From NCBI GenBank assembly GCA_003402375.1, contig QFXJ01000053.1, positions 4,182 to 68,181 of the forward strand: 64,000 nucleotides of DNA, written 5' to 3'. The DNA is from Candidatus Nitrotoga sp. CP45. Lineage in GTDB: Bacteria > Pseudomonadota > Gammaproteobacteria > Burkholderiales > Gallionellaceae. The notes beneath the pieces were generated by a model. The model had not been told where the DNA came from and searched no databases. It saw only the letters and a program-made list of their open reading frames with translations. Below, one piece after another: positions 21,477 to 31,560 of the stretch. Every line of letters starts with the position of its first letter. Positions within the stretch are counted from its first letter, which is position 1. A program made the translations under genes and the position numbers.

Positions 21477-24400
21477 ATGACCACCGTAATGAATATCGCA
21501 ACAAAATATCTCAGTAAGGGGCTTGTGTTCTTAATTCAACAATTACATGCAGCAGATAACTACATAACTAGACATTGGGATATTGAAAATCCAAAAGGCT
21601 ACGACGACCTAACCCCTATTGATAAAGCAGATGAAGACAGGAATTATTCTGAAGCACTCATCTGGGCACTAAAAAATCCCAGTGTAAAGAATATCGCTAT
21701 CACTGGTCCATATGGTTCGGGCAAAAGCAGTGTCTTGCGAACCTTTGAAAAAGGGCACAAGGAATATTCATATTTGAATATCTCCCTTGGTGCCTTTAAA
21801 GATGACCTTCAAATAGAAGGTACGGATGCGAATCGGAATGCATTGATAGAAAAAAGTGTATTGCAACAAATCTTCTATCGCATTGGGGAGCATATAGTTC
21901 CGCATTCCAGATTCCGACGAATCAAAGAGATTCCTTACCTTTACAACCTGATCAAGTCGAGTCTTTTTGCATTGTGGCTTGTAGTTGCTGGATATGTATA
22001 CGCCCCCAAAACCCAAGTTTTTGAAAGTCTTTTAGGTAAAGACGCTTTTGATGGTGCAACTTATTTATATCCCGCTGCCGTGATCACCATCTTGGGGCTG
22101 GCTCTGATTATCAATGAAGCCATTCGACTCTTTAGTCATATCCGACTGAGCGAAATCAACTTCAAAGAGGGGAAAATGAAGTTCGACGAAAATAGTGGCG
22201 ATTCCATTTTGAATAAGCACCTAGATGAAATCCTATACTTCTTCGAAAAAACGAAATTCGATGTAGTGGTAATAGAAGACCTAGACAGATTCGACGAGGT
22301 TGATATTTTCGTTAAGCTCCGCGAACTGAACACACTAATCAACAACTCTGAGCAGATCGACAGAAAAATCGCCTTCATATATGCCATCAAGGACGACGTA
22401 TTCGAGGATGCAAATCGCACGAAGTTTTTTGACTTCATCATTCCAATAATCCCGGTCATTAACACATCAAACTCCGGCGATGTACTATTCAAGAAATTAT
22501 CCAACTCTTTTGCGAAAGAGGAAATACCGGCCACATTCGTAAGCGATATTACGCTATATGTTGAAGATATGCGGATGTTGAAAAACATCTATAACGAGTT
22601 CGTTCTATACAAAAATAAATTATGTTCGGTAGGTGGAATTAAGCTGCCACTAGACAAACTTCTTGGCTTTATTGTTTATAAAAATAAATATCCCAACGAT
22701 TTCGCCAAACTGAACTCGAATGACGGAATGGTAGCCGGAATATTTAAGAAAAAAAGAACGCTTATTGAAAACAAAGCCAAATCGCTTAGTGCTGAGATAG
22801 ATTCACTGCAAAATGAGTTGGCACAAATTAATGAGGAAACGCTAAACAACACAAAGGATTTACGAAGGACGTACTTGGCTGCGCTATTTGAAAAGATTCC
22901 GAATTTGCATCAGCTATCTATTAATAATGTAAGGCATAACGTTGCCGATTTTCTAGAAGATAACTTGTTTAAACAATTACAGGCACAGCCACAAATCCAA
23001 CACTACCTCTTCAACAGTCACTATGGACCACATAATACGGGCCTCTCCTTTAAAACTCTTGATGAGCATCTCGGAGCAAGGGTGGCATATCCTCAAAGAG
23101 AACTTTTGATCATCAATAAGGGAAATGGTCGTATCGAAGAAGTCAAAAAGAATATCGCAGTACTGAATGAAAAGCTTCGGGATATAAAGTCATCCAACCT
23201 TAAGGGCCTGATTGATGCATTTCCATTAGAAGATTTTTTTGATAATCAGATTAAGGAAGAAAAGCTACTTACCTACCTAATCAGGAAGGGCTATATCAAT
23301 GAGGATTACCACGATTTTATCTCCTTCTTCTACGAAGGGAACATTACAAGAAATGATCAGGAATTTTTACTATAGACTCGGCCCGATTTATCCGTGAGTC
23401 ACCCAGTTTAAATTGCTCATAGAACTTGTATTTATTGACTTGCACGAGTGTCTCTCATACATGAGTCGCGGATAAATCAGGCCGGATCAATAAGTATCAA
23501 GAACCAGGACCCACTCAAGTTTACTCACTCATTAATTAAGATCGACGCAGTAATCAAACGCTTGAGTCGATCAGACTACAAAGAGTCAGCAGCATTCAAC
23601 TTTGATTTAATTAGCACACTGCTCAAAACGCCCGCCTACAAGGATCAACTGTACGTGGTTTTGGCTCAACTCTGCAACAACGAGAAACGTTCACTTGAGT
23701 TCATTGACACATATTTGTCGAATCAGGCAGATGCAGGGCTGTTAATAGATGAGCTTTGTAGGCGCTGGAAAGGGTTTTGGAAATGCGTTTCACAAGAAGC
23801 CAACTATCCGACCGATACGATTAACGGCTATCTAAAATTGATTCTCATTTATGCAGACACACCCAATATCATAAATGTGAATATCGACTCATCTCTAACT
23901 AGATACATTTCTGAAAAAATGAATTTCCTTGAATTCGCTTCCGGCATAAGTGATGTTGCAAAGTTAAAAAACACCCTAGCGAAGCTGGAAGTAAAATTTA
24001 CTGAACTCGTCAGGCCTGAGGTCAATAAAGTACTTTTTGAGTACATATATGAAAATTCCTTATATGAGATTAATGCCCATATGGTTGAGCGAATAGTTCA
24101 ATACTTCAATTCTAATGTTCTGAAGACGAACTCGATAAATACTTCAAATTTCACCGTCATACTTGAATCCAAGTGCAGCGAACTAATTTCCTACATCAAC
24201 TCCAATCCCAATGTGTATGTTGAGAATGTATTACTAAGCAGTGAGGATGAAATTGATGAAAGTGAGAATACTCTATTAATACTCTTAAATAATGATGACA
24301 TTGATGTTGACGGAAAAACTGCAATCCTTAACAAACAAAAAACGCCGATAACAAAGATTACCGATGTTTACGATCATGAGCTTTGGGGAGCCATTATCCA

Positions 24401-25277
24401 ATCATCAAAAGTCGATGCCACATGGGAAAATCTACTCGCATATTTCGATGAAAAGAAAGCCTTGGATGACGCATTGATAGCGTTTTTTAATCGACCTGAG
24501 AATTACAAAGAGTTAGCAAAATACAGATTACAGGAAAGCGAAAAGGCACCAAAAAATCTAATCATGCTTATTTCCAGGCAGATACTTTTGTCTACCGATC
24601 TAATTGATGATAGCTACGGATATCTCATACAGTGCATTCCATACTGGTACAGCGATTTGCCGGGCATTGAGAGGTTAACTAACACCAAAATCAGCCACAT
24701 CATAAGTAACGGCAAACTACAGTTAACTGAGGAGAATTTTAATTCACTTAAGAAGCACTTCAACAGTCAATACGCACGTCTTATTGAGAAGAACATTGAC
24801 AACTATTTGGATAATATCGGCGAGTTTGAATTGGATGCGGTTGGATTAAAAATTATTTTGAAATCCAAAGTTGTTTCTGCTGACCAGAAAATTACCATCC
24901 TGAATAATGTTGATGCTGGCATCATTGTCGAGAATTCCGAATTGACTCTCCTAATCTTTGAAATCTTGCTTAGCAAAGAATCCTGTTCGAAGTTAAATCT
25001 CCCATTGGTAGAGAGTCTTGTTGCACAAGACGTATATATTCATGAAAAGGTTAAGCTCATTGTTAAACAAGCCGAGCACTTAGCTTCACTTGAAATCGAG
25101 AAATTACTAACTCTGAGTGGCCCTCCAATTTCAGGCATACCCAACAATCAGAAGCCCATCGTTGAAAATAACGATATATATAAGCAACTAGCTGAGATGC
25201 TTATTGAAAAGGGAATTCTTTCTTCTGTTAAAGAAGACGATAAGGGCATGATTAGGCTGCATCCAAAGCGAACGTAA
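21477..25277 (+). pseudogene. YobI-like/KAP-type P-loop NTPase (1226 aa if reconstructed), interrupted by a MITE
   Basis: Walker A GPYGSGKS, Walker B VVIEDLDRF, KFFDFIIPIIPVIN, two TM segments. ORFs 21477-23375 and 23448-25277 are in the same frame, separated by a 120-bp insert. Confidence 0.82.
23373..23490. mobile_element. 118-bp MITE with TA duplication (IS630/Tc1-like target)
   Basis: Imperfect TIRs tagactcggcccgatttatccg / cggataaatcaggccggatcaa; TA at 23371-72 and 23491-92. Confidence 0.85.
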
Positions 25278-25884: not shown

Positions 25885-25956
25885 CGCTCATTGATCGTCC
25901 TTTTCTGCTGGCAGTGAGGCTGCTTTGTCCGAGAAGCCGCCATTTCTTTGGATATT

Positions 25957-26166
25957 CACGGCTATGTGTTGCCCTTGAAGCAGTAGCGTCCTCCGATATT
26001 CACGACGAACGCGATTTATCGCATTCACCAGTGATCGCGTTTTGCCAGAGCCAGCACCAGCATAAAGAAAAAAACCTTTGGCTCAGTAAGATTAAGACGA
26101 TGCGTAAATTTCATCGTCTACACCATCATCAACACCATTATCGTCTTGTGGGAGCGCTTCAGTCAT
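25957..26166 (-). pseudogene. 5' remnant of a UvrD/GajB-like SF1 helicase
   Basis: MTEALPQDD..DDEIYA, then (+1 frame) LNLTEPK, then back in frame FFLYAGAGSGKTRSLVNAINR..QHIAV; truncated before the expected TYTN motif. Confidence 0.72.
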
Positions 26167-26188: not shown

Positions 26189-26962
26189 TCAAGGTGCTGC
26201 TTTTTTGCGATCCCGTTTGGATTGAACTCGGGCATCAAGGCGAGGCCAATGTTCGGCATGGAATTTTTTATTGGTTATTATTTCTATCGGGGCAGCTCCC
26301 ATGACATCAATTCCCCATTGCGTAAAAACGAACATTCCGGCATCTGAGAGTGCTAGTTTTTCCAGCCATACAACTCGATCTATCAGATAACGGTCGGGGT
26401 TTTTACCGGCGAATCCTGATGCAACATAGTTTTCGAAAAATGCCTTGGCGACCAACACGGCTAAACGTGCTTGCTCAATGCCATTCGTATCGCGCTTGGA
26501 GGATAGACGATGCAGGTTAACGATGCGGCTTTTGAGAACAAGGGTCGGGTGGAGAATGCGTATAAATCCATAGTCGGGGTGTTCAAGCTCGACAGCGCGC
26601 TTTCTGATTTCTTCGTTGGATAGTCCGATCAACATTCCCATGAAGTCAATAAATAGCGTGCGTCCATCTGGTGTTTCGTAAGTAACAATGGCTGTGTTTG
26701 GCGTATGGTCGTCCGGCTCCGGAATGCGGAGTATCCCTTGCAATTCTGTTGCAACGATTCGAGCATCGTGCTTTGTGGCCAAAACATCAGCGTCCTGCGT
26801 GAGATACGGCGTGTCACTCGGAGGTGCGGGAATTTTAAAATAATCGACCCAGAATGTTAGGGACTGCCCCCCAACCAGGATGGCTGGCTGAGTTGCCTTC
26901 TGGAGCGCGTGGAAAAATTCTGGTAGGTCGCTCGGCTGGAACCAATCGTAACCGGCAACCAC
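26189..26962 (-). CDS. Predicted Pol-beta-superfamily nucleotidyltransferase (AbiEii/MenT-like)
   Basis: ILVGGQSL..W ... TQDADV motif and a later IDF acidic strand. Confidence 0.6.
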   Translation of the reverse strand: MVAGYDWFQPSDLPEFFHALQKATQPAILVGGQSLTFWVDYFKIPAPPSDTPYLTQDADVLATKHDARIVATELQGILRIPEPDDHTPNTAIVTYETPDGRTLFIDFMGMLIGLSNEEIRKRAVELEHPDYGFIRILHPTLVLKSRIVNLHRLSSKRDTNGIEQARLAVLVAKAFFENYVASGFAGKNPDRYLIDRVVWLEKLALSDAGMFVFTQWGIDVMGAAPIEIITNKKFHAEHWPRLDARVQSKRDRKKAAP

Positions 26963-26965
26963 GGT

Positions 26966-27205
26966 TTAACCAGGCATGCGAACGATGCGGAATTCGGCAG
27001 GATTGACATTTGAAATGAGCTTCGCCTGAGACACGGCTTTCGCAACAGGCAAGTGGCTGACTTTCTTGCTAAAAGCAGCTTGGCGAGCTGCTTTGCTGTA
27101 AGAGGGTTTTGCCGCTACTACTTTTGCAAGATGCACAGAGCCGCGCGCGCCTGCCTTCACAGGCTTTTCTTTATTCTCAACCGCATTGGCAAGTGCTCTT
27201 TTCAT
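26966..27205 (-). CDS. Small basic hypothetical protein (79 aa)
   Basis: Ala/Lys-rich ORF ending 3 bp before the NTase start. Confidence 0.55.
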   Translation of the reverse strand: MKRALANAVENKEKPVKAGARGSVHLAKVVAAKPSYSKAARQAAFSKKVSHLPVAKAVSQAKLISNVNPAEFRIVRMPG

Positions 27206-27241
27206 AACGGCATCCTAGCACGTTAAGTCTGAATCCTTCAA

Positions 27242-27379
27242 TACATCCCAGTGGGCGAAGTGTGGGAAGTCGGGGCACGCATTACCATCTCGGTATCCAG
27301 CATCCAACGTCACGGGGTGATGCGCAGGGACAGGAATTCGCCGAATTACACCATCTTTGCTTTGCAGACGCTCGATTGA
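27242..27379 (+). pseudogene. Orphan 3' gene fragment (unidentified)
   Basis: Open frame YIPVGEVWEVGARITISVSSIQRHGVMRRDRNSPNYTIFALQTLD* with an in-frame stop just upstream and no start; its stop lies in the first bases of the 205-bp repeat. Confidence 0.4.
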
Positions 27380-27575
27380 TAAAGCCCCAAAAACATGGAC
27401 GGTCTGAGGAAGTCAAAAACAAAACCACCAATCGAGTTTGTTCCCAATGATTTTTCCAAAGGCATTTGAATAAAATCGCTGGATTCCCGTCTGCGCGGGA
27501 ATGACGAGGTCTTGCAATATCGGCCATTCTGGGTTGAACCACCACGCCACTTGAGGCAAGATGCGTCCTCAACGA
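27371..27575 (+). repeat. ~205-bp direct repeat, copy 1 (contains a ggattcccg..gcgggaatgac REP-type hairpin)
   Basis: Aligns over its full length with 28429-28630. Confidence 0.92.
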
Positions 27576-27719
27576 TTCGCCAAAAAATAGCAACTTCGAA
27601 CAAGCGAGGTTGCAATGCATGAAAATAATAGTCAGTTTGATGTTGGGGGTATGTACTTGCATTTTTATGCAGCTGCGTCGTAGAATGTGACTACTATTTT
27701 AGTCATAAAGGATTTTAAA

Positions 27720-27956
27720 ATGCATGCAATGAGTTTGGCTCAAGCCAAAGCGCACTTGAGCGAGTTGCTGAATGCCGTTGAATCCGGTGAGGAGGTTGTT
27801 ATTACTCGTCACGGTCGTCCTGTTGCAAGGGTGGTGCCTGCCAGTCCGCTCAAGCAGCCCTTGCCGGTGCAGCGACTGGCAGAGCTTCGCCATCAGGTGC
27901 CCGCATGGAAAAATAGCAGTGCCGAGTCGCTACGTGAGCTGCGTGACGCAGAATGA
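27720..27956 (+). CDS. Phd/YefM family antitoxin
   Basis: MSLAQAKAHLSELLNAVESGEEVVITRHGRPVARVVP. Confidence 0.92.
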   Translation: MHAMSLAQAKAHLSELLNAVESGEEVVITRHGRPVARVVPASPLKQPLPVQRLAELRHQVPAWKNSSAESLRELRDAE

Positions 27957-28384
27957 TTTATCTGGACACCAGTTTCCTGACACCGCTGTTTCGGGAGGAG
28001 GCCACTTCCGCGAAGATTGCGGATTTTCTTTCTCGTCAAGCGGTGGGAACGCTGGCAGTCAGTAAATGGGCATCTGTCGAATTTGCTAGCCTGATTTCTC
28101 GCGATGTACGCATGGGAACGCTAACAGCAAGCCAAGGGAAGCATTTAATTGCGGAGTTTTGTTCGGTAGTTACTACCTCTCTAATTGTCCTTATTCCAAG
28201 TGCCAATGATTTCGATCTGGCACAGGAATATGTAGCTCACTTTGCCACCCAGCTACGCGGCCCGGATGCCTTGCACCTGGCAGTGGCGCATAACAACGGG
28301 GTGGCGTTCACCGCCACCTTGGACGAAGAAATGCTCTCCGCTGCGAAAAAACTGAAAATCCCGGCACGGCGGGTGATTCGCTAG
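27953..28384 (+). CDS. vapC: VapC family PIN-domain toxin
   Basis: MIYLDTS, LRGPDALHLAVA, TLDEEM; ATGA overlap with the antitoxin. Confidence 0.9.
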   Translation: MIYLDTSFLTPLFREEATSAKIADFLSRQAVGTLAVSKWASVEFASLISRDVRMGTLTASQGKHLIAEFCSVVTTSLIVLIPSANDFDLAQEYVAHFATQLRGPDALHLAVAHNNGVAFTATLDEEMLSAAKKLKIPARRVIR

Positions 28385-28428
28385 GCTTTCCCACCTTGCG
28401 GTTCGCTGGTTTGGGTCAATAGGGTCGA

Positions 28429-28630
28429 CTCGATTGATAAAGCCCAATACACATGGCCGGTCTGGGGAAGTCAAAAAAACCACCAATCGAGTATGTCTTC
28501 ATTGATTTTTCCAAAGGCATTTGAATAGAATCGCTGGATTCCCGCCTGCGTGGGAATGACAAGGTCTTGCAATATCGGCCATTCCGGGTTGAACCACCAC
28601 GCCACTTGAGGCAAGATGCGCCTTCAACGA
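28429..28630 (+). repeat. ~202-bp direct repeat, copy 2 (upstream region of the yebC paralog)
   Basis: Aligns with 27371-27575. Confidence 0.92.
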
Positions 28631-28663
28631 GTTTTGTATCAACCATCACAGAAGAGAACAGAC

Positions 28664-29368
28664 ATGGGCGCACAGTGGAAAGCAAGGCACAAAGAAGTCG
28701 CAGCGAATGCAAGGGGTAAGATTTTCGGCAAGCTGGCCAAAGAAATCATGGTGGCCGCAAAGGGCGGTGCTGACATTGGCTCAAACTCACGTTTGCGTCT
28801 GGTGGTTGAGCAAGCCAAAAAAGTCTCTATGCCGAAAGAGACCTTGGATCGCGCCATCAAGAAAGGTGCAGGCTTGTTGGATGGTCCGCTTCACATGGAA
28901 CATCTGGTGTACGAAGGTTTCGCGCCGCACCGTGTACCGGTCATCGTTGAATGTCTGTCCGATAACACCAACCGCACTAAAGCCAGCATGAATGTGTTGT
29001 TCCGCAAAGGACAGTTGGGTGCGCCCGGCTCTGTGTCATGGGACTTCGACCATGTCGGCATGATCGAAGCGACACCGAATACGAAAGATGGTGATGCCGA
29101 AGTCGCCGCAATCGAAGCGGGCGCGCAAGACTTTGAGCCTGCGGATGAAGGTGCGACTCTGTTTATCACCGAGTTCACCGATCTGGATGCCGTGTGCAAA
29201 GCGCTACCCGCACAAGGCTTCACCGTCACCTCCGCAATGGTTGGCTATCGCCCCAAAAATCCCGTCACCCTCAGCAACGATGCCGAACGTGAAGAGGTCG
29301 AAGCCTTCCTCGAAGCCATCGATGCGGATGATGACGTGCAGAATGTTTATGTGGGGTTGGCGGGGTAG
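28664..29368 (+). CDS. YebC/PmpR family protein (second paralog, MGAQWK type)
   Basis: [49 protein letters not shown]. Confidence 0.92.
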
Positions 29369-30483: not shown

Positions 30484-31560
30484 TCATTCAGGCTTAGGTG
30501 AAATAAAAGCCTTGTGAAAAAGATGACGTGCAAGAAGAAAGGACGGCATACGCAGCCAGGTTGCGCGTACATACAGTATCTGCCGTGCGGTACCAGTCAA
30601 CCAATCAGAGCAGCTCTTGTGGGCAGGCAGGAGGGCGCGCTCGAAAAGTTGATCTGTAAAAAACAAGGTTAGCGGGTTGGGGCGACCATTTTGAGTGGCT
30701 TTCATCATGCCTGAAGGAACGGGCGTATTCAAAAAATGTACAGCATAGCGCAAGGCGTAAAAAAGTGGTCGCATCAACCCAAGCTCGTGTGCCCGCACGG
30801 ATAAATCTGTCCAAAATGTTGGCAACCTACTGAAATGACGTAACAAACTATCAATATCAACCAAATCCCGCAGCCCCTGATCCAGTTGATCGTTATGGAA
30901 TAAGTGGACAGCACTGTGAAGCACCATATCGACCGGGGCAAATATCTTCACATCATCATAGCCATCAAGTAACTGCGCTGCAGCCAAAAGCTTTGCCGAA
31001 TCAGGGTGAAGCGCTGCTGTTTCCGGCAAAATCGCATGATGCACGTCGATAACGGTCATCCGTTTAATATGCTGCATAGGCGGCAATTCATGCATCCATG
31101 TACGATAGTAACGCTGGTCATAAGCATCGTGATGCGTCGCCGCCCAACCATGAAGCATCAAGGCGGCTTCTACAACACTGAGACTATCTTTAGGCACAAT
31201 AATGTCAATATCAGAGAATAGTCTTCCCTTGGCGGACGGCAGTTTTGCCATTACATAAGCAGCGCCTTTGAGGAGAACGACTGGCACACCTACTTTTTCC
31301 AATGCCTTTCGAATTTGGGTTATTTCCCAATGAACAGCTTGAATATGCTTTTCAGAGATTACGCGTGACCACTCCAGGTGTTGGCGGGGTTTTGGCGGTA
31401 CCTGTTCGAGTAAGCTGCGTTCGTCTAATAAAAGGCAAATACGTGCCAACAGATTCGCGCGGCGTGCTTGGCGTATGAGCAAATCCCAATCTAGCAGACT
31501 TAGGGAAATCAATGCTTCTGGCTCTCGGAGCGCTTGTAATATTAAGTAATTGGGGATCAC
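30484..31560 (-). CDS. Nucleotidyltransferase family protein (NTP_transf_5-like)
   Basis: VVLLKGAAY ... GRLFSDIDIIV, IDVHH motifs. Confidence 0.85.
   Translation of the reverse strand: MIPNYLILQALREPEALISLSLLDWDLLIRQARRANLLARICLLLDERSLLEQVPPKPRQHLEWSRVISEKHIQAVHWEITQIRKALEKVGVPVVLLKGAAYVMAKLPSAKGRLFSDIDIIVPKDSLSVVEAALMLHGWAATHHDAYDQRYYRTWMHELPPMQHIKRMTVIDVHHAILPETAALHPDSAKLLAAAQLLDGYDDVKIFAPVDMVLHSAVHLFHNDQLDQGLRDLVDIDSLLRHFSRLPTFWTDLSVRAHELGLMRPLFYALRYAVHFLNTPVPSGMMKATQNGRPNPLTLFFTDQLFERALLPAHKSCSDWLTGTARQILYVRATWLRMPSFLLARHLFHKAFISPKPE

Follow-up and report, generated by a model that had tools for sequence, protein, structure and literature searches.

The stretch of DNA analysed here (the window) comprises 64,000 nucleotides of contig QFXJ01000053.1 from Candidatus Nitrotoga sp. 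CP45, and its minus strand carries the compact gene pair that is the subject of this study. The first gene (27205..26966, minus strand; ATG start, TAA stop) encodes a small basic protein of 79 amino acids, the putative antitoxin, and the second (26962..26189, minus strand; GTG start) encodes a nucleotidyltransferase of 257 amino acids, the putative toxin. The two genes are separated by a gap of three nucleotides (26963-26965, ACC on the coding strand), so that the junction (26963..26968, minus strand) reads the TAA of the small gene, a codon ACC and then the GTG of the enzyme, all in the same frame. An earlier note, made from the sequence alone, had described a two-gene module with this 3 bp spacing, a GG..S ... 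T.DAD motif in the enzyme and a short, Ala/Lys-rich partner with no recognizable helix–turn–helix (HTH). The open reading frames (ORFs) and their gap were found where it had placed them, and the motif and the character of the partner were likewise recovered.

The layout of the junction suggests translational coupling of the small gene and the enzyme gene. The 3-nucleotide gap is kept in nearly all Gallionellaceae loci; the junctions of distant relatives show a 1-nucleotide gap (locus L005), 4-nucleotide ATGA overlaps or longer overlaps. In a collection of 5.8 billion proteins, 144 relatives of the large protein and 116 of the small protein were found, and those with names, for either protein, belong to Nitrotoga, Gallionella, Sideroxydans and Methylotenera. 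Among 13 loci, at a synonymous divergence (dS) of about 1, the ratio of nonsynonymous to synonymous substitution rates (dN/dS) has a pairwise median of 0.21 in the small gene and of 0.12 in the large gene, values indicating that both are under purifying selection. Because of these relatives, the retention of the pair in the Gallionellaceae loci and the low dN/dS, both ORFs are judged to be real genes and not chance ORFs.

Fold and family of the nucleotidyltransferase

The 257-residue protein contains VGGQS at residues 30-34 and T55-Q-D57-A-D59, and it has the Pol-beta motif set of GG, [S/T]xDxD and, on the strand that follows, a third carboxylate. An AlphaFold2 model of the protein, calculated with 22 relatives, has a mean predicted local distance difference test score (pLDDT) of 88.8 and a predicted template-modelling score (pTM) of 0.86. 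The elements of the model follow the order helix, strand, helix starting at GGQS, DxD strand and then more strands, including strand 102-108, on which D106 is located. According to this model the protein is a two-lobed Pol-beta nucleotidyltransferase, with a predicted catalytic lobe formed by residues 1-138 (G31-G32-Q33, T55-x-D57-x-D59 and D106) and a predicted helical lobe formed by residues 139-257 (H138-P139, S145-R146, N149, K156 and Q164). The catalytic lobe is acidic, with an isoelectric point (pI) of 4.7.

Comparison of the model with the PDB using Foldseek gave JHP933 (4o8s), MenAT1/MenT1 (8an5 and 8an4) and TM1012 as the top matches, with a probability of 1.0, expectation values (E) of 2.5e-4 to 7e-4 and TM-scores of 0.4-0.56. 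The next matches in the PDB were viral poly(A) polymerases and FAM46, and those in a viral structure library were poly(A) and tRNA nucleotidyltransferases. The Foldseek comparison, which the earlier note had named as a check on its assignment, has therefore returned a Pol-beta-like fold, and the nearest solved structures, JHP933 and MenT1, are DUF1814 proteins (PMC7450476, PMC10435456).

At the level of sequence, neither the 257-residue protein nor its partner has a real match in Pfam, NCBIfam, PADLOC or PHROGs, and no system protein model of PADLOC-DB 2.0 matches either of them at E <= 1. Using the family hidden Markov model (HMM), no match of the enzyme to AbiEii/DUF1814 (PF08843) was obtained at E <= 1, and the window genome contains no PF08843 match anywhere. 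An hhalign comparison of a 42-member alignment with 20 DUF1814 proteins of other genomes gave a probability of 76% (E = 2.2e-5) over 119 columns of the catalytic core, which is a weak link, and a comparably weak link was obtained with three NTP_transf_8 proteins (probability of 59%, 83 columns). Pfam matches among 42 diverse relatives were all weak, and were to NTP_transf_8 (PF12281) for four of the 42 (best E = 2.6e-4), to DUF2204 (PF09970) for one (E = 1.1e-6), to DUF6036 (PF19502) for two (best E = 0.0066) and to AbiEii (PF08843) for one (E = 0.083). The earlier label 'AbiEii/MenT-like' thus holds for the fold, as given by the AlphaFold2 model and the Foldseek matches to JHP933 and MenT1, but not for membership by sequence, where Pfam gives no match and hhalign gives the 76% stated above and no more.

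A family profile run against 1.84 billion cluster representatives identified 1,422 clusters (at 50% identity) with E <= 1e-3, 900 of them with E <= 1e-10. No relative of the close family was found in a viral-contig collection, and a literature search found no description of this nucleotidyltransferase family. By fold, the 257-residue protein falls within the nucleotidyltransferase clan, with DUF1814 as its closest match in three dimensions, and it lies outside every catalogued family; the putative toxin family, a large one with no entry in the four libraries named above, is itself new.

Residue conservation was assessed in 42 diverse relatives with 22-46% identity to the window enzyme. G31-G32, D57, N149 and a Thr or Ser at position 55 (32 Thr and ten Ser) are found in all 42; Q33, W38, D59, D106, P139, [R/K]146 and Q164 are each found in 41, H138 in 40, K156 in 39 and S145 in 37. 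The position of T55 matches the layout of T39/D41 in MenT1 and S78/D80 in MenT3, an equivalence by motif position and not by superposition; in MenT1 and MenT3 the antitoxin induces auto-phosphorylation of the Ser or Thr located two residues before the catalytic Asp (PMC11375011, PMC7450476). In addition, [R/K]146 lies within the stretch aligned by hhalign, near the Lys of DUF1814 (K189 of MenT3).

The small partner and its counterparts in homologous loci

The 79-residue protein is Ala/Lys-rich and strongly basic, with a pI of 11.2, 16 Lys and Arg residues versus three Asp and Glu residues, and 20% Ala. Its conserved core spans residues ~38-79 (KAARQAAF...AV.QAKLI....EFRIVRMPG), and R41, Q42, A43, F45, L63, I64, F72 and M77 are invariant in its relatives. 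The N-terminal half is variable and basic, and it can be missing, for example in the 59-residue partner from Methylotenera. No recognizable DNA-binding domain was found in the protein using domain libraries and a profile search of the PDB. The sole domain match among the 116 relatives is a precomputed Pfam match to PF18780 in P0234, a relative of 93 residues.

A small gene lies directly upstream of the enzyme gene in every locus with readable upstream DNA and gene calls. This includes all of the ~30 Gallionellaceae and Nitrosomonadales loci with upstream DNA, which came from a locus scan that reached only the Gallionellaceae and other Nitrosomonadales; the census of partners beyond the Gallionellaceae clade covered about 16 lineages. 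Conservation of the gene pair, which the earlier note had also proposed to examine, is therefore seen in each readable locus. When the six-frame ORFs of every fetched locus (5,301 to 5,548 sequences) were searched with an HMM of the partner, a partner was identified upstream of enzymes with 52% identity to that of the window (L005; E = 2e-13), 46% identity (L001-L004; E = 9e-6), 41% identity (L044; E = 2.5e-4) and 34% identity (L083; E = 0.01). A partner of the window type accordingly accompanies enzyme homologs down to 34% identity. Because the partner HMM finds an ORF directly upstream of these homologs, the sequences indicate that the small protein and the enzyme have co-evolved across a wide range.

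In the sampled distant enzyme homologs (27-35% identity), the upstream gene always adjoins the enzyme gene directly or overlaps it. Several of the distant partners contain an antitoxin DNA-binding domain within their 50-60 N-terminal residues and, behind it, a tail of 50-70 residues; the domains are ParD_like in L041 (E = 9e-15) and L074 (E = 6e-13), RelB in L079 (E = 9e-12) and HTH_3/Xre in L078 (E = 2e-12) and L086. Other distant partners are free of domains and have lengths of 60-88 residues, and pairs of this kind include those on plasmids of Bordetella pseudohinzii, Stenotrophomonas rhizophila and Synechocystis, which are annotated as 'hypothetical protein'. The combination of one toxin family with interchangeable antitoxin heads is a familiar pattern of type II systems. 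Because distant partners carry classical antitoxin domains, the upstream gene is assigned as the putative antitoxin and the enzyme as the putative toxin; for the same reason, the 79-residue partner looks like the family's usual antitoxin minus the DNA-binding domain, a headless version, and not like a new kind of partner.

By eye, a likeness can be recognized between EARLIDGANVRVVDWG in the tail of the L086 partner and QAKLISNVNPAEFRIVRMPG in the core of the window partner, and the tails and the window core seem, on the same visual comparison, to have a motif of roughly A[RK]LI...hR[IV]V.[MW]P in common. Judged by this resemblance, the window partner is likely to be a neutralizing tail without a DNA-binding head.

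The earlier note had suggested a possibly uncharacterized toxin–antitoxin or abortive-infection pair with a new type of partner, on the premise that characterized nucleotidyltransferase toxins pair with HTH, HEPN or kinase antitoxins. The toxin–antitoxin part of this suggestion is supported, in that the cassette is conserved, mobile and behaves like a toxin–antitoxin module, but the novelty of the partner was overstated: MenA1 is already a characterized antitoxin, of 68 amino acids and without a DNA-binding domain (PMC10435456), which leaves the premise incomplete, and the distant relatives use ParD-like, RelB and Xre-HTH antitoxins.

Mobility, decay and genomic surroundings

The cassette is mobile and patchy in its distribution. 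One identical enzyme sequence occurs in two contexts, beside groESL and beside an AAA_15/DUF4276 pair, and one copy is located within an array of PIN and ParE toxin–antitoxin modules. Two of the three plasmid copies examined, those of Bordetella and Stenotrophomonas, sit among conjugal-transfer genes, and the third plasmid pair is that of Synechocystis. The family was present in three of 401 sampled genomes of the phylum, and AbiEii in 64 of 151.

Decayed copies were also found. In L033 and L036 the enzyme ends at approximately residue 60, at the DxD motif, and a different module comes next, while the small gene is intact; to judge from the sequences, this site looks like a hot spot where toxin–antitoxin modules replace each other. 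What follows the stub was identified by eye as a pair of an MNT-like protein (111 amino acids) and a HEPN-like protein (130 amino acids) in L033 (2770-4079), and as an AbiEi-like gene of 272 amino acids in L036 (2704-4146). In four metagenome-assembled loci, L017, L021, L024 and L030, the enzyme frame stops after 58, 227, 32 and 115 codons, respectively, and the small gene has its full length; these broken frames are either genuine toxin decay or assembly errors. Loss of the toxin with retention of the antitoxin is the expected path of decay for such modules.

Within the Nitrotoga genome, the window pair adds a further accessory module to a small island of toxin–antitoxin and defence genes. 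The flanks named in the earlier note, VapBC and a defence remnant, are both present: a Phd/YefM-type antitoxin with a PIN toxin (VapBC) is encoded at 27687-28384, and a UvrD-like Walker-A stub lies at 25888-26082, the latter on the basis of a weak Pfam match (E = 0.003). Beyond the stub there are a VOC-type (glyoxalase-fold) gene and a YobI-like P-loop NTPase (21477-25277; Pfam E = 9e-122) that is split into ORFs of 632 and 609 amino acids. The Phd/YefM-PIN pair is bracketed by direct repeats containing a hairpin of the type ATTCCCG…CGGGAAT, which were assigned as repeats because the minus-strand ORFs on either side (27282-27662 and 28416-28712) translate into near-identical peptides. A second, unrelated nucleotidyltransferase, NTP_transf_5 (E = 3e-56), is located 3.5 kb away at 30484-31560.

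Upstream of the small gene, an alignment of nine loci contains a conserved block of ~45 nucleotides (27206..27250, minus strand), where conservation begins; the DNA further upstream differs between genera. The block consists of TTGAAG (27241-27236), 18 nucleotides, TAGGAT (27217-27212), six nucleotides and the ATG. The cassette may have a promoter of its own here, in which case the mRNA would be leaderless or nearly so, or the block may serve as a ribosome-binding site. The promoter is proposed solely because of this conservation, and a scan for consensus promoters upstream of the small gene called no site.

Several other homologous loci have surroundings of their own. In L039 (700-3665), from another genome of the same order, a pair of 88 and 287 amino acids (1160-2307) lies beside a minus-strand ORF of 262 amino acids, which a further ORF of 161 amino acids adjoins. 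The N-terminus of the 262-residue product (MGICIDSSTKFLKKLGYNVVRLPREGI...) presumably resembles bacterial gasdermins, and the surroundings of L039 suggest a defence island. In L084/L085 (915-5434) a distant member of the family and an 88-residue partner are found in a phage-like set of genes (HNH endonuclease, DHFR, metallophosphatase and Phage_phiTE_072). In L086 (1651-4073) the HTH_3 partner and the enzyme lie between ORFs of 161 and 247 amino acids, both of which match ABC_sub_bind, and this cassette may have been inserted into or beside a gene for a substrate-binding protein.

Proposed mechanism, alternatives and significance

By analogy, the window pair would be most like MenAT1 (Rv0078B/Rv0078A) of Mycobacterium tuberculosis in its working. 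In both, a two-lobed nucleotidyltransferase toxin is preceded by a short antitoxin that lacks a DNA-binding domain (68 amino acids in MenAT1 and 79 here), the roles and the two lobes being predicted in the present case; MenT1 is among the top structural matches of the window enzyme, and the S/T-x-D-x-D layout is common to both, T39 of MenT1 being auto-phosphorylated upon antitoxin binding (PMC10435456, PMC11375011). However, neither protein shows detectable similarity in sequence to its MenAT1 counterpart, the enzyme has 257 residues here and about 189-194 in the solved MenT1 chains, the partner is extremely basic, and the relatives of the window pair use ParD-like, RelB and Xre antitoxins, which are not reported for MenAT1 (PMC10435456, PMC11375011).

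The pair was also compared with other known systems. AbiEii/DUF1814 proteins, including JHP933 of Helicobacter pylori, which is the best Foldseek match of the window enzyme, combine the same Pol-beta core (GG, [S/T]xDxD and a third Asp) with a helical second lobe, and the profile–profile match to them spans the catalytic core. In contrast to these proteins, the window enzyme has no PF08843 match, the K...D pair of DUF1814 is not clearly conserved in its family, and its partner is not of the type of AbiEi (COG5340), which is a winged-helix and kinase-like protein. NTP_transf_8 (PF12281), DUF2204 (PF09970) and DUF6036 (PF19502) are linked through weak matches from a few distant family members, whereas the window protein matches none of them. 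Furthermore, the three NTP_transf_8 proteins examined carry a long extension at the N-terminus and have 315-350 residues in all, and translating the DNA upstream of their genes in six frames revealed no partner of the window type. With type II modules in general the cassette shares adjacent, co-oriented small genes that are close or overlapping, and a pair that is kept in varied and mobile contexts, although the window partner lacks the N-terminal ribbon–helix–helix (RHH) or HTH domain that partners of distant homologs have. HEPN-MNT (type VII) systems pair a minimal nucleotidyltransferase with a HEPN protein, whereas here the partner is free of a HEPN domain and the enzyme has two lobes and 257 residues.

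The fold, the catalytic motifs, the strict co-occurrence of the two genes, the antitoxin-type domains of the distant partners and the mobility of the cassette were established in this analysis. The pair is probably a self-contained toxin–antitoxin cassette, in which a MenT-like enzyme would be the toxin and the 79-residue protein an antitoxin that binds and silences it; the toxicity, the RNA target and the mode of neutralization we infer by analogy. The free enzyme would add nucleotides to the 3' ends of RNA, most likely to the acceptor ends of tRNA, and translation would stop. Owing to translational coupling, the small protein would be synthesized ahead of the enzyme and in excess over it, and would bind the enzyme by its conserved C-terminal core (residues ~38-79). 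Silencing could then proceed in one of two modes: the basic peptide might occlude the acidic catalytic lobe, or, as in MenA1/MenT1, T55 might be pushed toward the bound nucleoside triphosphate such that the enzyme phosphorylates itself. If the pair is a toxin–antitoxin module, this second mode has a real chance of being correct, albeit one that falls short of even.

A number of observations weigh against a MenT-like cassette of this kind. The TM-scores to MenT1 and JHP933 are only 0.41-0.52 (Foldseek E = 2.5e-4 to 4.3e-4), the enzyme has no sequence match to DUF1814, and a phmmer search and two profile searches of the PDB gave nothing related. The Asp that is specific to DUF1814 toxins (D211 of MenT3) has no clear conserved counterpart, the family keeping N149, K156 and Q164 instead. 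On the side of the partner, its extreme basicity is unusual for a neutralizing antitoxin. A search of the PDB with the small-protein profile found no chain except for a chance match to RelI (E = 2) and no similarity to MenA1, where the PDB includes the MenAT1 complex 8an5 and the presence of the MenA1 chain among the scored sequences is unchecked. Iterated HMMs comparing the window core with the tails of the ParD-like, RelB and HTH partners gave no statistically significant similarity. Lastly, a same-frame read-through fusion of the two proteins (TAA as Gly, 14 aligned loci) was modelled with a mean pLDDT of 46.8 and is uninformative on binding.

A more far-reaching version of the toxin–antitoxin reading is that the window pair is the founding example of a large unnamed toxin family whose antitoxins share the tail and swap or drop the head (ParD-like, RelB, Xre or none), and whose minimal basic antitoxin silences the enzyme via auto-phosphorylation of Thr/Ser, which would carry the mechanism of MenAT1 far outside DUF1814; taken together, these proposals are tentative and rather doubtful.

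It is also conceivable, and on balance unlikely, that the same cassette serves mainly in abortive infection or phage defence, as AbiE does. Phage infection would lower the amount of the labile small protein or displace it from the enzyme, which, once free, would halt translation before the phage completes its cycle. The nearest fold family takes its name from AbiEii, a toxin that acts in abortive infection (PMC11375011 and a bioRxiv preprint); the YobI-like NTPase, the UvrD-like stub and VapBC are neighbours in the window, one relative lies beside an AAA_15/DUF4276 pair, and the patchy, mobile distribution fits a defence role as well. However, PADLOC gives no match, one relative lies inside a phage-like region, and the several copies among plasmid transfer genes would be explained equally well by plasmid stabilization.

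It is quite improbable that the enzyme is an ordinary, non-toxic nucleotidyltransferase, acting for instance in the modification of small molecules or in RNA 3'-end repair, with the small protein as its regulator or chaperone. Non-toxic enzymes do occur among Pol-beta nucleotidyltransferases with a helical second lobe, and poly(A) polymerases are among the Foldseek matches; against this, distant partners bear ParD-like, RelB and Xre antitoxin domains, the cassette occurs in toxin–antitoxin arrays and on plasmids, the family is very rare per genome, and the enzyme gene is repeatedly broken next to an intact small gene. A reversal of roles as in HEPN-MNT (type VII) pairs, where the nucleotidyltransferase is the antitoxin, with the enzyme here nucleotidylating a toxic small protein basic enough, in principle, to bind nucleic acids or membranes, is scarcely credible, because decayed copies lose the enzyme but keep the small gene alone, which would be lethal if its product were the toxin, and also given that the slot of the small gene holds canonical antitoxin DNA-binding domains in distant relatives and that the enzyme is a two-lobed, MenT-like protein of 257 residues and not a minimal MNT.

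Among nucleotidyltransferase toxins, to our knowledge, a mechanism has been worked out only for MenT and AbiEii, namely tRNA 3'-end extension and antitoxin-induced auto-phosphorylation. If the toxin–antitoxin reading is correct, a family that occurs in several phyla, on plasmids and in genomic islands, would keep the active-site Ser/Thr, and would show the generality of this principle of control. The finding would also add a missing family to the annotation of toxin–antitoxin and defence systems. Furthermore, the 79-residue protein would provide a minimal antitoxin of natural origin, its core comprising ~40 residues, in which neutralization could be studied without transcriptional autoregulation.

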